Of a DNA stretch of 41,106 nucleotides, positions 30,001-36,000 are shown in pieces (position 1 is the stretch's first letter; each line of letters begins with the position of its first letter). The stretch covers positions 1 to 41,106 of the forward strand of contig JBDRFE010000059.1 of the NCBI GenBank assembly GCA_043819075.1, written 5' to 3'. This stretch comes from an archaeon. Lineage in GTDB: Archaea > Iainarchaeota > Iainarchaeia > Iainarchaeales > 1-14-0-10-31-34. Position numbers: made by a program.

Positions 30001-33000
30001 TTTTTTAGTATCAGTTTCTAGTTGTGGAGCTAGCTCCCCTGAAAGTGGTGCTGGCATACCAACCAAGCGTGACTGTTGAAGCAGAGGTGGCGGAGTGGTC
30101 TAACGCGCCAGCCTTGAGAGCTGGTATCCGAAAGGATGCGCGAGTTCGAATCTCGTCCTCTGCGTTCGCGGTTTCGTCCGCGAGTAACGAAATATGTCGC
30201 TCTATCTTCGATAGAGCATTAATATTTATAAGGGATTGAAAATCAATTAAATGGTGAAGAAAATGAAAAAAGTTTTTGTATTGATTGCCCTTGGATTAAT
30301 TCTTTTTGGTTGCATTCAAGGCAATGGCAGTGATAAGAATGCAAGTGTTCCAGCAGTTTATTCCACTCAAGAAGAATGTGAGGAAAAAAATGATTGTGAA
30401 TGTAATTTTGTTATGTGCGATTATATTCCTGAAGGAAAAACTTTTGAAGAAGTTTGCGGCAAGGGCTTTGAAAAAGGATGGAAATGCGTTAATACAACAT
30501 TAAAAGAAGGTGTAAATGAAATGAGTAAAACAGTTGAAGCAGGAGACACAATTAAAGTTGAATACATTGGAAGTTTTCCTGATACAAAAGAAGTTTTTGA
30601 CCAGAGCAACGGAAACCCGTTGGAGTTCACTGCCGGTGCAGGACAAATGATTAAAGGATTTGATAAAGCGGTTATTGGAATGAAATTAAATGAAGAAAAA
30701 ACTGTTTTAATTCCTCCTGAAGAAGCATATGGTTTAGCAGGAAGAACTTCTCATCCTTTAGCAGGAAAAACACTGCAGTTCTGGATTAAGGTAGTGGAAA
30801 TAAACAAAAAGTGATTTAACTGCCTGAAACAATGGAAAAGCTTTTTTTATAATCGCTCTTATTTTTTTGTTATGAACAAAAAAATGAGTGTTGGCTGGTT
30901 TTCTTTTTCCTGCTGTGAAGACTCAACAATTGTTTTCACTGAATTACTGAATGACCATTACCTTGAATGGCTTAAATTAGTTGACTTTAAGGCGTCAAGA
31001 ATCCTTAGAGGAAAAAACGATGAAACAAACTTGGATGTTGCTTTTGTTGAAGGCGCAATTGCAAGCAAAAAAGACGCAAAAAAATTAAAGGAAATAAGAA
31101 AGAATTCTAAAAAGCTTGTTGCAATCGGCTCCTGTGCTGTAACCGGAATGCCCAGCGCGCAAAGAAACGAGTTTGACCAAGAAAAAACAAAAGAAATTTC
31201 TTTTTTAGTTGAAAGATTTAAGCTGGCAAAAAAAGTTGTTCCATTGAATAAAATAGTTAAAGTTGATGCAAGCGTTTCAGGCTGTCCAATGGACGAAAAA
31301 GTTTTCTTAAAATTGTTTGATGAATTATTAAAGGAATTTGGTGCAAAAAATGCATAGCTTTGATGTAACAATTGAAAACATTAGCAAGACAGAAGGCCAC
31401 GCAGGCCTTGATGTAAAAGTAAGAAATGGAAAAGTTTCTAAGGTTCAGTTCAAGATACTGGAAAGCAAAAGATTTTACACTCAGGCGATTCGTGGAAAAA
31501 ACTTTCTTGCCGCGCCCCAGTTAATGTCAAGAATCTGTGGAACCTGCAGTATTGCACACTTGTTCTGCTGCATTGAAGCAATAGAAAAAGCTCTTGAAAT
31601 ACAGGAATCAGAGCAAACCAGAATTTTAAGGACTCTTGTAATGAATGGCTTAATGATTCGCGACCATGCACTTCACTTGTATATGTTTAGTCTGCCGGAT
31701 GTAATAGGAAAAGATTCTATTCTGGATTTTGATGAAAAAAACGAGTTTGAGCATGAATTATTGCATGACACTTTTTCTGTGAAAGGAGCAGGAAACAATT
31801 TATCCAAATTAATTGCTGGCAGGTCAGTTCACGCCCCATTCCCTTCAATCGGAGGCTTTACAAAAATTCCTGACAAAAAAGATTTTCCTAAAATGATTTC
31901 AGAGCTTAAAGCCCAGAGAGAAAAAGTCCTGAAATTAATTGACATTTACTTTAAATGTGAGTTTGATTTCACGAGAAAAACAAATTTTGTTGCAATAACA
32001 AACAAAGACTATGATTTCAGGCAAGGAATGCTTTGTTCGAGTACTGGAGTCTGTGTTCCGGAAGAAAACATGGAACAGCATTTAGAGCACGTTATACTGC
32101 CTTATTCCCAGGCATCAGGATACAAGTTTCAGGGAGACGCTTTTATGGTTGGAGCTTTAGCAAGAATGAACTTAAACAAGAAAAGCCTGTGCAAGGAAAC
32201 AATTAAAGATACTTCAAGTTACCTGAAAAAATTTCCTTCAAACAACATTTATGACAACAATTTAGCTCAGGCAATAGAAGTATTGCATTGCATTGATTCA
32301 AGTGTTTCTCTTTTAGAGTCTTTTGAACCAAAGCCAGAGCCAAAACAAAACATTGTTCCAAAAAAAAGTTCAGGCATTGGAGTAATTGAAGCTCCAAGAG
32401 GAACTTTATTCTATAAAATTGACTTAAATGAAAAAGGAATTGTATCAAAAGCAAAAGTTGTTGTTCCTACCGGCCAGAACCAGATTAATATTGAAAAAGA
32501 TGTTGCTGCAATTGTCGAGAAAAACCTTAATGCCCCGAAAGAAAAAATTCAGTTTGAAATAGAAAAATTAATCCGAGCTTATGACCCGTGCATGAGCTGT
32601 GCCTCGCATTTCCTTAAAATAAACTGGCTTTAATTCTTTTTTTCTTTAATGTAATCTGAAATCAGTTTTTTTAATCCATTTAATGCCTGTTTTTGACTGA
32701 AATTCATTGGCACGCCAAAAACAATTACTTCTTCCAGCAAGCCGGTTTTTTCAAGCAGTTTCAGGTTAAAGCCTAAGTCAAAGTCATGCAGAGAAAAAAC
32801 TTTTTCTGAAACAATTTTTTCTGTTCCTTCAATTCTTTTGCATTCTTTTATTCCTTGCACGCAGTCAATTATCACAAGCTTTTTTCCCTGTTTTTCAAGG
32901 TTTTCGCTTGGGTCAAATTCCATGAAATCAATTAAAGGAAACTCTTTCCTTAACTCGGGCAGGATTTTTATTGGCACAGAATCTTTTTCCACTAAAATAT

Positions 33001-36000
33001 TTCCAAAAACAAGTATTTTTTGTTTCATAAACAATTAATTGAATTAAATATAAGTATTTAAAACCCTTTCAGCATTAGTTTTTTTTATGAGCCAGTCAAA
33101 AGGATTTTTTCTTGTTTTGCTTACTGCAATAATAAGCGGAATAAGCATTTTCTTAAACGCTTTTGCTGTTCAGGGCTTTGACAACGCATTTGTTTTCACC
33201 GGAATGAAAAACTTAATTGTAGCAGTATTCTTAATTTCAGTAATTGTATTGTCCGGCCAGCTTAATTCAGTCAAAAATTTGACAAAAAAACAATGGCTTT
33301 CACTTTCTTTTATCGGCTTAATCGGCGGAAGCATTCCATTCTTATTGTATTTTTATGCACTGAAATTGTCAACTGCTTCTGCTGCAGGATTTTTGCATAA
33401 AACAATTTTTGTTTGGGCAACAATTCTTGCATTCTTTTTTCTGAAAGAAAAGCTTTCAAAAAAAATTGTTTTCGGCGCACTGCTTCTTTTAACAGGAAAC
33501 TTCTTTTTATTTAACTCAAGTTTTTCTTTTGGATTTCCTGAACTGCTTGTATTTATTGCTGTCTTGTTCTGGTCAGCAGAAAACGTTTTGTCAAAACATG
33601 TTTTGAAGGATTTAAGCTCAACAGTTGTTGCTGGAGGAAGAATGTTTTTCGGCTCTGCATTCATTTTGTTGTTCCTGTTGTTTTCAAACCAGCTTTCAGT
33701 TATTTCAGTTTATTCAGCTGGACAATGGAGCTGGATTCTGTTAACTTCTTTCCTGTTGTTTTTGTATGTTTTGACTTTTTATTCTGGTTTAAAGCATTTA
33801 AGTGTTTCAGCTGCAACTTCAGTTCTTTTGTTGGGCCAGCCGATTACTGCTTTGCTTAGCTTAATTTTTTTAGGCAAAACAATTTCTTTTTCAGAAGCAT
33901 TTGGTTTGGTTTTGATTGTATGCGGAGTAATAATTATTGCAGGCTTTTCTTTTTTTGTTCAGGCTTTAAGGTTAACAGGTTTTTTTGTTGGACCAGAAAA
34001 AAATTGATTCTCTTGTAAAAGCGTGCAGGTATTCTTTTATTTCAAACAAGAAAAATTATTGCGGAACAACTGATGCTTTTTCTGAGTTCAAGGATTTCAT
34101 TGAAAACCCTTTGCCTGAAAAAACAAATAAAATTGAAACTCTTTTCATGAGCTTTGAAGCCCTTTACCCTTATCTTAAACTGATTGCAAAAGCAAACAAG
34201 CTTTCTCCTTTGGATGAAAAAGTAGTTGACGCTTACTGGATTGGAAACGAATTGCTTGAAAAAGTTTCTTTGGATGAAACAAAAGAAATGATTTTAGCTG
34301 ATTTTGTCAAGCCCGGGTTACTTCCGAAAAGCATTGCATTAAAAAAAGCTGAAAGCATTCCTTTTGGTTCTGTTCCGCATCATTCTTTTCATGTTTTGTT
34401 CATTAATTTTGTTTCAAGAAAAGTTGAGCCGGTTTTAAAAAACCTTGACAGCTGTTTAATTAGCTGGGGTAAAATAAAAGAAGTGAAAGAAAATTCTTTG
34501 GTTGTTGATTCAGTTCAGCTTGTTTTTGATTCAGGAGAATTCAAACTCAAAGAAAAGCGCAAGGCAATTGATTCCGGCCTTGTTTCTGGAGCAGAAAAAA
34601 ATTCTTTTGTTTCAGTTCACTGGGATTTTGCTGTTGAATTAATTGAAAAACAACAGCTTAAATCTTTGAAGCATTTCACTGAAAAAAACATTACTGCAGT
34701 GAATTCTTTTTTGTAATCATTTCAGGCAAAGCTTTATATTCATTGAACTAATAATCTTTTTATGGCTGTACCAAAACCTAGAGGAAAAATTGCAAGAGGC
34801 TTGAGAGCTTTAAGGCTTAAAAAATTAACTAGGCTCAGGCAGAGCCAAAAAAGAAAAAAAACCCTTGGCCAGATGAGAACTGTCAGTAATGTATTAGCAG
34901 AAATGCGCGGGCCAGGCAGGCCGACCAGCCATAGATTCAAACTATTCATTGATGGATACACAAAAACTTTAGAGAATTCTGTTAACTCAAAAAGAAAAAA
35001 ACTCAAGCGCCAGAGAAAAGGCGTGTTTTAATTTTTTTTATATTACGTCTTCTTTTTTTATTTTTTCTATTACCATGCCCTGCTGGACTAAAACATATTC
35101 TCCTTTAACGGCTTTTTCTGCATTAATTGCCTCAATTTTTTTTCCCTGTGAGTCAATTACTGCAATTCTTCCGTTTTCCTTTAATTCAGTTATTTTTCCT
35201 GCTAATGCAAGGCACATAAACAAAAATATGCCTGAAACATTTTTAATTCAATTCCATGTTTTTCCCTGAATTCATTTAAAACCTTTTTTCTATTTAATTT
35301 TGAAATGAAATTAGAGTTAACAAAAAAAACCTGGCTAAGGCTTTTGCTGCTGCCCTTGCTTTTGTATTCTTTTTATTTAGCAAAGCTTCCGATTGAAATA
35401 ATAATTATTTTTGGCTTATTTTTTTTGCTGATAATTTTGTTCAGGACACATTTTTACGACAAAATTGAGTTTCTTTTAGGCGAAAAATTTCCTGTAATTC
35501 ATGACTGGCATCCATGGCAGAAAAAAGCCATTATAATCATTGTATTTATTTTAATTTACACTGTAATAAAACAACTGCTGTATTTTTCCATGGACTTCTT
35601 TTTTGGCTTAAACATTGAGAAAATGGTGTTAGAAAGCATGAATTACCAGTCTTTTGAATAAACCTTTTTAATTCTTTGATTCCATTAAATAACTCAGGTG
35701 TGCTGAATCAAGATATCTTTTTTCAATGTTTTAAAAATAATTAAAAGAACTTTTAATGACAAGGAAGTAAGAGTCTTATTAATCATAGTTTTTTTCAGTG
35801 TTTTAGCTGGAGGATTTGTTTACCATCATTTTGAGCACTGGAGTTTTTTTGATGCAGTTTATTTTTCTGTTGTCACTTTAACTACAATAGGCTACGGAGA
35901 CCTTTACCCGCTGACTTTTGCCGGAAAACTGTTTACAATCTTTTATGTTTTCATCGGAATCGGATTAATTTTTTTGTTCATTAACAGGGTTGCATCCAAT

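Follow-up and report, generated by a model that had tools for sequence, protein, structure and literature searches.

A Transporter–DUF6390–HypC Module Probably Replacing HypD, HypE, and HypF in [NiFe] Hydrogenase Maturation

Introduction

According to a 2025 review, no [NiFe] hydrogenase obtains its cofactor without a set of six Hyp proteins (PMC12134894). How, then, is a [NiFe] hydrogenase supplied with its cofactor in an archaeon for which HypC is the only one of these proteins found? The question is raised by a locus of the Iainarchaeales in the window, by which we mean the whole stretch of DNA analyzed (41,106 nt of contig JBDRFE010000059.1). An earlier note on this DNA had argued that an alternative route is needed, and our analysis supports this; the account was incomplete in that the two genes between those for HycI and HypC, which encode an EamA transporter and a DUF6390 protein, were left unnamed. 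We propose that these two proteins and HypC form a module that very probably replaces HypDEF in cofactor supply; the novelty of the locus resides in this module, the enzyme being of a known type.

A Two-Subunit Hydrogenase of the hyd2 Type

The small subunit (30872..31357, plus strand, 161 aa) matches PF01058 with an E value of 3e-19, in agreement with its previous identification. It has only four Cys, at positions 14 and 15 and in the GxCA and GCP motifs, and can therefore hold no more than one Fe-S cluster; a tandem Cys-Cys stands in place of the usual C-x-x-C, many relatives have Asp-x-x-Cys, and no signal peptide was seen on inspection by eye. The large subunit (31350..32633, plus strand, 427 aa counted from the ATG; PF00374, E value 1e-28) is related to group 3b and probably belongs to the hyd2 clade. 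Its top NCBIfam matches are to sulfhydrogenase alpha models, far below cut-off, and it matches Thermococcus kodakarensis 5yxy with an E value of 3.5e-61. A sequence check bore out the motifs claimed at residues 61–67 and 412–420 and the 7-residue tail; the two CxxC motifs supply the four Cys ligands (Cys63/66 and Cys414/417), and Glu15, EAPRG at 347–351, Pro373-Thr374, and His420 directly before the tail are also present. We take these to include the N-terminal Glu and, close to the CN and CO ligands, the Arg and Pro-Thr motifs of the second shell. EGH and EAPRG occur in all 48 of the 3b-type sequences from the order and the strict form of the Pro-Thr pattern in 38 of the 48, the window sequence being included in both counts.

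Alignment with the group 3b sulfhydrogenases (T. kodakarensis HyhL, 5yxy; P. furiosus SHI, 9nez) extends over residues 5–423 and includes all four Cys; unlike them, the window enzyme has no flavin/NAD(P) module and its small subunit is cut to one cluster. As the earlier note had stated for the diaphorase, neither canonical beta and gamma subunits nor a full-length small subunit is encoded within the window, and genome-wide there was no match to the beta subunit and a single gamma-like match, a lone PyrK-like gene on contig C20. The closest counterpart is the group 3b-related “hyd2” hydrogenase described for CPR bacteria (Jaffe et al. 2020, PMC7304191), which shares the truncated small subunit (mean of 164 aa as given there), the absence of adjacent beta and gamma subunits, and a hypC-like neighbour. 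In a tree built without the reference sequences of that study, the window large subunit falls in a clade with CPR short-small-subunit enzymes (99% FastTree local support); it differs from them in being archaeal. Judged by its sequence, the window enzyme is cytoplasmic, has two subunits, and joins the known hyd2 type of [NiFe] hydrogenases as a new member; its most likely role is to release electrons from fermentation as H2, with a ferredoxin as the intermediary.

HycI, HypC, and the Missing Hyp Genes

A HycI-type maturation endopeptidase (32630..33028, minus strand, 132 aa; PF01750, 25.4 bits against a cut-off of 23; dN/dS 0.12) has Asp/Asp/His metal ligands that, by eye, are presumably retained, and HypC (35038..35217, minus strand, 59 aa) matches PF01455 with an E value of 5.7e-11 (42.8 bits, cut-off 28.5). 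Both had been placed beside the hydrogenase, correctly, with the amendment that they lie on the minus strand and are convergent with the hydrogenase genes. HypC begins with Met-Cys and thus retains Cys2; the alignment places Gln45 where the conserved His (Escherichia coli His51; for its role see PMC12134894) is expected. This His is lost in 29 of 29 module copies of the order and kept in all four copies adjoining HypD; counting every module copy, 12 of 71 retain it. The basic 89-aa ORF between DUF6390 and HypC (34762..35031, plus strand) matches no family and, not being conserved in the module, probably lies outside it.

The reported lack of HypA, B, D, E, and F in this genome, which is 90.55% complete in 75 contigs, was reproduced. 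HypD and HypA were found neither by profile search nor by tblastn with the proteins of relatives; HypF was not found, and HypF tblastn queries hit only short acylphosphatase or Sua5 regions. HypE gave sub-cut-off profile matches to PurM- and PurL-like ORFs and nothing in tblastn with relatives' sequences, and HypB a weak partial match of the Mrp/ParA type in a 773-aa frame, bacterial HypB tblastn queries returning nothing. Carbamoyl-phosphate synthase is present.

DUF6390 and Its Predicted Complex with HypC

The EamA/DMT transporter (33087..34007, plus strand, 306 aa; PF00892, E value 2.5e-38, 131.9 bits) has two EamA repeats and the conserved polar residues N24, K41, N42, K105, E165, R185, and T254, and belongs to a hydrogenase-linked clade. 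The DUF6390 protein (33985..34716, plus strand, 243 aa; PF19927, E value 5e-38) consists of a helical N-terminal domain (1–154) fused to a HypC-like domain (155–239; hhalign against HypC, 96.4%). Cys26, His133, Cys157, and His212 are conserved in 140 of 140 sequences, and Cys157 aligns with HypC Cys2 and His212 with the HypC His. The structure model has a pLDDT of 97.6, and HypC was the top match in both fold searches (2z1c, Z 5.7, rmsd 1.9, 71 residues aligned). HypD was not listed in searches with the whole protein or the N-terminal domain, there is no match to PF01924, and with only two invariant Cys the protein has no [4Fe-4S] motif.

The modelled DUF6390–HypC complex scores 0.77 and the best control 0.00; the mark set for such models is attained by 116 of the 157 solved pairs and by 2 of the 215 mismatched ones, a calibration that applies roughly here. 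At least 94% of contacts are shared between runs, partner pLDDT is at least 89, and the modelled interface comprises DUF6390 residues 25–27, 133, 136, and 157 and HypC residues 1–7 and 45–48. DUF6390 is, as modelled, a candidate HypD-independent scaffold. The HypC–HypD scaffold that works with HypE and HypF (E. coli; T. kodakarensis 3vyr), as described in PMC12134894 and PMC11565642, likewise uses the HypC Cys2 retained here, and on the DUF6390 side the model brings a conserved Cys and a conserved His into the interface. DUF6390 differs in containing a HypC domain with equivalents of the Cys and His, in lacking the [4Fe-4S] motif, and in that HypD came up neither as a profile match nor among the fold matches listed; moreover, a transporter is present where HypE and HypF would be expected and the free HypC often lacks its His.

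Distribution and Gene Swap within the Order

Our counts for the order agree with those reported earlier: 70 of 196 genomes encode a hydrogenase (PF00374) and 126 do not, HypD occurs in 4, and HypF_C in the same 4. Among the 70, DUF6390 is present in 57, a short form in 7, HypD in 4, neither in 2, and both in none, and only 2 of the 126 genomes without hydrogenase have DUF6390 or the short form. Two genomes of 83–85% completeness (G020 and G173) have a hydrogenase, and HypD, DUF6390, and the module EamA were not found in them. EamA adjoins DUF6390 at 42 of 43 loci of the order, the two are fused in P0125 and P0089, and a genome-wide search of the four HypDEF-bearing members recovered no protein of the EamA clade in any of them (control G194: 364 bits).

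Two generalizations to the order needed revision. The enzyme is indeed commonly found without HypD, E, and F, but the loss of HypA was overstated, as about 30 members keep it (27 of 196 genomes above cut-off, 3 more with full-length matches below). Nor are most of the 70 hydrogenases two-subunit enzymes: among 68 neighbourhoods, 24 are of this type, 18 of a long-small-subunit or four-subunit 3b type, 15 have a membrane-bound Mbh-type cluster, 8 have both of the latter, and 3 are unclear.

Within genus g73 the replacement can be followed at one location. The order hypA-hypC-hypD-hypE-hypF-small-large is found in G180 and, on two contigs, in G183, and hypA-hypC-short DUF6390-EamA-small-large in G181, G184, and G194; hypDEF is thus exchanged for short DUF6390 and EamA with hypA left in place. 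Large subunits are 83–88% identical across the swap, and in their tree G180 is sister to G194 and G183 to G184.

The Module in Actinobacteria and Other Lineages

The HypDEF-less pattern is not confined to this order and is common to many other archaea and bacteria. The DUF6390 module comprises 1126 representatives at 50% identity (E value up to 1e-10). In a wider sample HypD was present in 4 of 72 DUF6390 genomes, and a transporter flanks DUF6390 in 60 of the 68 HypD-less ones; 3 of the remaining 8 have it on contigs shorter than 4 kb. Three of the 4 HypD-bearing genomes hold EamA and DUF6390 at a separate cluster, one of these three having a frame-broken hypD. These distribution counts include related genomes, which are not independent samples.

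A full large subunit is encoded in 40 of 161 genomes of the Pedococcus family, of which 22 have DUF6390 only, 9 HypD only, 9 both, and none neither; the isolate genome of Pedococcus cremeus (L159/G221) shows the same HypD loss. A transporter adjoins DUF6390 in 22 of 22 HypD-less genomes: EamA in 16, an Fbp-type system in 4, and a FecCD-type system in 2. None of the 10 DUF6390 copies from genomes with HypD has one alongside, and genome-wide searches for the EamA clade in actinobacteria with HypD and DUF6390 were negative in 5 of 5 genomes tested (control G194: 364 bits). Group-1h-type clusters take the form hypF-C-D-E-DUF6390 (G287, G384) or, swapped, DUF6390 with an ABC importer and hypA-hypB (G414, G303, G297), with large subunits 91–93% identical. 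Because DUF6390 lies in the hypF/C/D/E operons of nine actinobacterial genomes and keeps its key residues there, it is not merely a substitute, and its exclusivity with respect to HypD is not absolute.

EamA proteins are known mostly as exporters. From sequence, the EamA of the module is a candidate importer: in some genomes its position is taken by ABC systems of three unrelated kinds, all equipped with solute-binding proteins, which makes these systems importers, and for two of the three, iron or iron-complex binders are among the closest solved relatives. FecCD/Peripla_BP_2 and Fbp-type systems adjoin DUF6390 in some genomes; the Fbp-type binder matches Fe3+ binders and also sugar-phosphate and pyridoxal-phosphate binders, and SBP_bac_5 importers are about as similar to NikA as to DppA.

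A Proposed Route and Its Alternatives

Whether the module works by importing a pre-ligated iron complex is, in our judgment, evenly balanced, the substrate and activity being putative. EamA would import a ready-made iron complex with cyanide and perhaps CO; DUF6390 and HypC would form a scaffold in which, in the model, Cys26, His133, His136, and Cys157 meet HypC Cys2, resembling HypD Cys41 and HypC Cys2 in HypCD; and HypC, by analogy with its canonical counterpart, would deliver Fe(CN)2CO to the large subunit. Nickel would then be inserted without HypA and HypB here, and with HypA in those members that encode it, and HycI would trim the tail. With an imported unit, the carbamoyl-phosphate chemistry of HypE/F and the reductive Fe-S step of HypD become dispensable. 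We know of no natural free pool of Fe(CN)x(CO)y. Salvage has precedents in ABC import of cobalamin by BtuFCD or of siderophores, where an importer likewise stands in for a biosynthetic block, and hydrogenases can be loaded with synthetic iron complexes without maturases.

It is unlikely, though not far-fetched, that the transporter instead brings in iron as such or a small source of ligands (cyanide, thiocyanate, or similar), with Fe(CN)2CO then assembled by DUF6390–HypC out of free cyanide and CO, HypE/F and the redox step being unneeded. Distribution, swap, and complex model fit this equally well, as do the Fe3+ binders among relatives of the Fbp-type proteins, and exogenous CO is described as entering the cofactor at about 10 nM (PMC12134894). 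However, HypDEF genomes need iron too and lack these transporters, and the occurrence of four transporter families unrelated to one another, three of which have large solute-binding proteins, would favor a chelate-sized substrate over a gas or tiny anion.

We consider it improbable that the module handles only nickel or plain metal, the enzymes having an altered site without diatomic ligands or not activating H2. The swap deletes hypDEF and spares hypA (plus hypB in actinobacteria), large subunits are 88–93% identical across it with unchanged active-site motifs, the HypC retained has Fe(CN)2CO delivery as its known job, and a nickel importer is not expected to follow HypD loss; these points speak against it, and in its favor are NikA-like importers at 8 loci, NikR and LarC-like genes upstream at one Altiarchaeota locus, the His/Cys-rich DUF6390, the lack of HypA/B matches in the window genome, and the unusual hyd2 small-subunit ligands. 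There is also only a slim chance that DUF6390–HypC has the accessory role of storing or recycling precursor, with synthesis by unrecognised unlinked proteins or matured subunits supplied by a partner cell. DUF6390 within complete hyp operons, the carbamoyl-phosphate synthase of the window genome, and the many small-genome DPANN and CPR carriers would fit, yet the same loss occurs in large-genome free-living actinobacteria, P. cremeus included, and 160 clustered neighbourhoods yielded no further conserved gene family. That hypDEF is missing through incomplete assembly, or that the enzyme is the relic the earlier note had allowed for, is very improbable and largely refuted: most genomes are MAGs, the window genome is itself fragmented, and the large subunit of G014 is split, but HypD is missing in 66 of 70 genomes, among them the one-contig, 99% complete G083, same-place swaps are not explicable by missing contigs, all module parts are under purifying selection (large-subunit dN/dS 0.04–0.14 in unsaturated pairs), and a dN/dS of about 0.11 and the 88% identity between HypDEF-bearing and HypDEF-less copies argue against a remnant.

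Implications

Extending the import of a pre-ligated complex to its carriers, we suggest, with rather more doubt than confidence, that many archaea and bacteria, among them soil actinobacteria whose group-1h-type enzymes have a high affinity, may be auxotrophs for the iron-cyanide-carbonyl unit. They would acquire an iron-cyanide(carbonyl) complex from their surroundings or neighbours via EamA or ABC importers and load it via DUF6390–HypC, so that a community would have the precursor in common, much as with vitamin B12. Our literature search found no published salvage route for Fe(CN)2CO and no account of a DUF6390/transporter module, and in text passages and four supplements of Jaffe et al. 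(2020; PMC7304191) we found no mention of missing hypD/E/F, EamA, or DUF6390. If true, group 3b, Mbh-type, and group-1h-type enzymes would have in the HypD/E/F-free module a second way to their cofactor. The hydrogenase genes of DPANN, CPR, and soil genomes would then be read differently, cross-feeding or an environmental pool of the organometallic unit would be implied, and hydrogenase maturation could gain a three-gene tool. Because a cultured carrier exists, the question is directly testable.

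The hydrogenase and neighbouring genes

The hydrogenase is encoded by genes for a 161-aa small subunit (30872-31357) and a 427-aa large subunit (31350-32633), with HycI (32630-33028) and HypC (35038-35217) encoded beyond them on the minus strand. These positions, as well as both CxxC motifs and the 7-residue tail of the large subunit, are as the earlier note described them. Between the HycI and HypC genes lie the genes for an EamA transporter (33087-34007) and for DUF6390 (33985-34716), which together we refer to as the module. HyhL of T. kodakarensis aligns with large-subunit residues 5-423 (E 3.5e-61), and in a FastTree phylogeny the large subunit groups (support 99) with the short-small-subunit enzymes of CPR, Woesearchaeota, and Micrarchaeota. 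The passages of Jaffe et al. (2020; PMC7304191) on the CPR 'hyd2' enzyme describe a small subunit with a mean length of 164 aa, a hypC-like neighbour, an absence of adjacent beta/gamma genes, and an uncertain function. The window enzyme is of this already known type. By simple Nei-Gojobori comparison with a congener (genome G013), dN/dS is 0.11 for the large subunit, which is under purifying selection, and 0.11-0.26 for the small subunit, HycI, EamA, and DUF6390. Because the enzyme has one cluster and no flavin module, the genome encodes two small ferredoxins, and a ferredoxin gene lies beside the hydrogenase cluster in six loci, we infer that it carries out ferredoxin-linked H2 release.

Hyd2 small subunits depart from the canonical form in their first Fe-S motif (window 30872-30930; also loci L070, L084, L091, and L093): this motif is a tandem Cys-Cys in the window and in genus g73, the first Cys is Asp in many relatives, and some of these subunits have three Cys in total. 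Elsewhere in the window, tRNA-Ser genes at 30081 and 36740 lie on either side of the hydrogenase region, a LAGLIDADG-like ORF (40282-41031; PF14528, E 1e-12) ends at a tRNA-Leu gene (41017-41102) at the contig end, and two proteins were named by eye, a HerA-like ATPase of 1030 aa whose N-terminal stretch is acidic (22021-25113) and a 665-aa secreted-looking Cys-rich protein (38151-40148).

Maturation genes in the genome and across the order

Family profiles that detected their targets in E. coli and other controls found no HypD, HypF, HypE, HypA, or HypB in the genome (90.55% complete, 75 contigs), nor did tblastn searches with relatives' copies as queries, confirming the absence that had been reported earlier. 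PurM/PurL ORFs as a concealed HypE and small zinc-ribbon ORFs as HypA were considered and rejected. The genome has carbamoyl-phosphate synthase.

Among the 196 genomes of the order Iainarchaeales we reproduced the counts of the earlier note, with PF00374 in 70 genomes and HypD and HypF_C in the same four. Its claim that the pattern is shared across the order stands for the near-absence of HypD and HypF but not for HypA, which passes the cut-off in 27 of the 196 genomes. Likewise, the two-subunit type applies to 24 of the 68 hydrogenase genomes whose loci were read (the rows of G077 and of G076, the latter without its large subunit, were dropped), whereas 18 encode a long-small-subunit or four-subunit 3b enzyme, 15 an Mbh-type enzyme, and 8 both of the latter; 3 are unclear. 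The Cys motifs are kept in all three enzyme types.

A complete Mbh-type cluster with intact Cys motifs and its own HypA and protease occurs in 23 genomes of the order, most without HypDEF, and several Mbh-type loci have EamA-DUF6390-HypC immediately upstream (Mbh-type loci are L064, L065, L068, L071, L077, L081, L096, L101, and L103-L108). At four-subunit 3b loci (L036, L045, L049, L059, and others) the genes follow those for GAPDH and PGK on one strand, an arrangement in line with a coupling to the redox balance of glycolysis.

A probable replacement for HypDEF

The observed gene content, domain make-up, conservation, and swaps point to a probable replacement module. The 70 hydrogenase genomes of the order comprise 57 with DUF6390, 7 with a short form of it, 4 with HypD, and 2 with none of these, and no genome has two of them; either form of DUF6390 is present in only 2 of the 126 genomes without hydrogenase. 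EamA adjoins DUF6390 in 42 of 43 loci of the order and is fused to it in two database proteins, and the module is found beside all three enzyme types. A genome-wide search did not find the module EamA in any of the four HypDEF members of the order or in three hydrogenase-less congeners. In genus g73, the spot that separates hypC from the small-subunit gene is filled by a hypD-hypE-hypF block in G180 and G183 and by a block of short DUF6390 and EamA in G181, G184, and G194. Large-subunit identity is 83-88%, and in the tree each HypDEF-bearing copy has a module-bearing one as its sister. Presence of the module goes along with HypDEF loss.

Contigs G020:C18 and G173:C26 carry a hydrogenase, and searches of the two genomes, which are 83-85% complete, found neither HypD nor either form of DUF6390 nor the module EamA. 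In congener G014 the large subunit is broken into two ORFs (L050:9202-10476), and DUF6390 is still present elsewhere in the genome.

We found no mention of the module in the literature searched, mostly without subscription papers and without bioRxiv supplements: neither 'DUF6390' nor hydrogenase, EamA, and HypC together. The text supplements of Jaffe et al. (2020; PMC7304191), a scope that leaves out figures, contain none of the module terms, and part of the text of a Frankia paper (PMC11879354) mentions neither the DUF nor a transporter.

DUF6390 and its predicted contact with HypC

In DUF6390, an N-terminal helical domain is joined to a HypC domain; the profile comparison with HypC gives 96%. 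The predicted structure of DUF6390 (pLDDT 97.6) has HypC 2z1c as best fold match (Z 5.7, rmsd 1.9, 71 residues), with Cys157 aligned to HypC Cys2 and His212 to the conserved HypC His; these two residues as well as Cys26 and His133 are invariant in all 140 DUF6390 sequences. The short relative of about 160 aa matches DUF6390 (94.8%) and HypC (98.4%) in hhalign. PMC12134894 and PMC11565642 propose that HypC Cys2 and His51 and HypD Cys41 bind iron in the canonical scaffold. Within the order, all 29 free HypC copies that accompany the module have lost the His, and all 4 that neighbour HypD have it. Its retention in 12 of 71 module-associated HypC copies across phyla rules out this loss as a universal rule.

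A model of a DUF6390-HypC-iron complex scored 0.77, and the highest-scoring of three controls 0.00. In calibration, 116 of the 157 solved pairs reached the mark, as did 2 of the 215 mismatched ones; this calibration is only roughly applicable to the complex. Runs share at least 94% of contacts, partner pLDDT is at least 89, and the predicted interface joins DUF6390 residues 25-27, 133, 136, and 157 to HypC residues 1-7 and 45-48. The modelling supports the predicted binding of DUF6390 to HypC.

For the N-domain, an ESM Atlas search gave no usable match, and fold searches of the domain alone gave just generic helical matches, confined to residues 1-60 and with Z no higher than 6.3, and no Foldseek match under E 4, which shows that no known relative was found, not that the fold is new. 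Database proteins P0162, P0213, and P0255 combine DUF6390 with DNA-binding domains of the PadR, HTH_3, and GntR families; these are possibly sensors of a cofactor precursor, or else merged ORFs.

Distribution beyond the order

A GTDB scan confirmed at least 531 stretches, and 80 loci from Actinomycetota, Chloroflexota, Thermoplasmata, CPR, and DPANN were among the matches listed; none of these 80 has hypD, hypE, or hypF in its flanks. Setting aside 7 loci judged to be counted already in the order and a second locus of one genome, we searched 72 genomes whole and found HypD in four, one of them frame-broken; three of the four also have EamA and DUF6390. The flanks encode a transporter in 60 of the 68 HypD-less genomes (EamA in 46, an SBP_bac_5 ABC type in 8, an Fbp-type ABC in 5, and a FecCD-type ABC in 1) and none in the other 8. 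Most genomes are MAGs, and because kin are not independent samples, Fisher tests were not relied on.

In Thermoplasmata genome G225, one 3b cluster (L242) has a frame-broken hypD and a split hypE, and another (L163) has an intact EamA-DUF6390; the state of L242 reflects either loss in progress or sequencing error. An Altiarchaeota locus (L139:5561-10675) encodes in a row a LarC-like nickel insertion protein, NikR, a short DUF6390-like protein, EamA, and full DUF6390.

An independent test covered 161 genomes from the family to which the isolate Pedococcus cremeus belongs. Both ends of the large subunit are present in 40, of which 22 have DUF6390 only, 9 both DUF6390 and HypD, 9 HypD only, and 0 neither; HypF tracks HypD. 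Dropped from this count were 13 of the 53 PF00374 genomes, with one weak match each (taken as complex I-type), and G326, with DUF6390 fragments and no large subunit found. The nine genomes with both show that DUF6390 and HypD do not strictly exclude each other. In these genomes, DUF6390 lies inside the hyp operon with the four residues kept, and the nine copies form one group (FastTree support 94) within the actinobacterial branch of the DUF6390 tree. The transporter separates HypD-less from HypD-bearing genomes: it lies by DUF6390 in 22 of 22 of the former (16 EamA, 4 Fbp-type, and 2 FecCD-type) and by none of 10 copies in the latter; 2 of these 10 copies have an unrelated membrane-protein gene downstream (absence of FecCD was judged from neighbour lists for 9 of the 10). 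Genome-wide, the module EamA was not found in five of five tested actinobacteria with HypD and DUF6390, and a search for proteins closely related to the Fbp-type binder was negative in four of four tested genomes. A second same-spot swap occurs in clusters that we take from their motifs to be of group-1h type, with large subunits 91-93% identical and hypA and hypB staying.

What the transporters may carry

Loss of HypDEF would remove the making of cyanide (HypE and HypF) and its reductive placement on iron (HypD); the gain would be a scaffold without an Fe-S cluster, predicted from the complex model to contact HypC, together with one of four transporter types that are unrelated to each other, of which three have the architecture of importers. 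The nearest solved relatives of the binding proteins are iron(III), sugar-phosphate, or pyridoxal-phosphate binders for the Fbp type, iron-complex binders for the FecCD type, and DppA/NikA for the SBP_bac_5 type. Genomes with HypDEF need nickel and iron too, yet lack these transporters, so that the cargo would most simply be a product of HypDEF. We give about an even chance that this cargo is an iron complex that carries cyanide and may also carry CO; we know of no natural source of an iron-cyanide(carbonyl) complex.

Assembly of Fe(CN)2CO from iron and free ligands ranks next, as a rather unlikely alternative to import of such a complex; in its favour, PMC12134894 describes the entry of exogenous CO into the cofactor. 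A role in nickel supply only, to which the NikA-like binders and the one NikR/LarC locus would point, is improbable given the same nickel need of transporter-less HypDEF genomes. In the laboratory, high nickel bypasses HypA/B, and the absence of HypA and HypB here is therefore the lesser puzzle.
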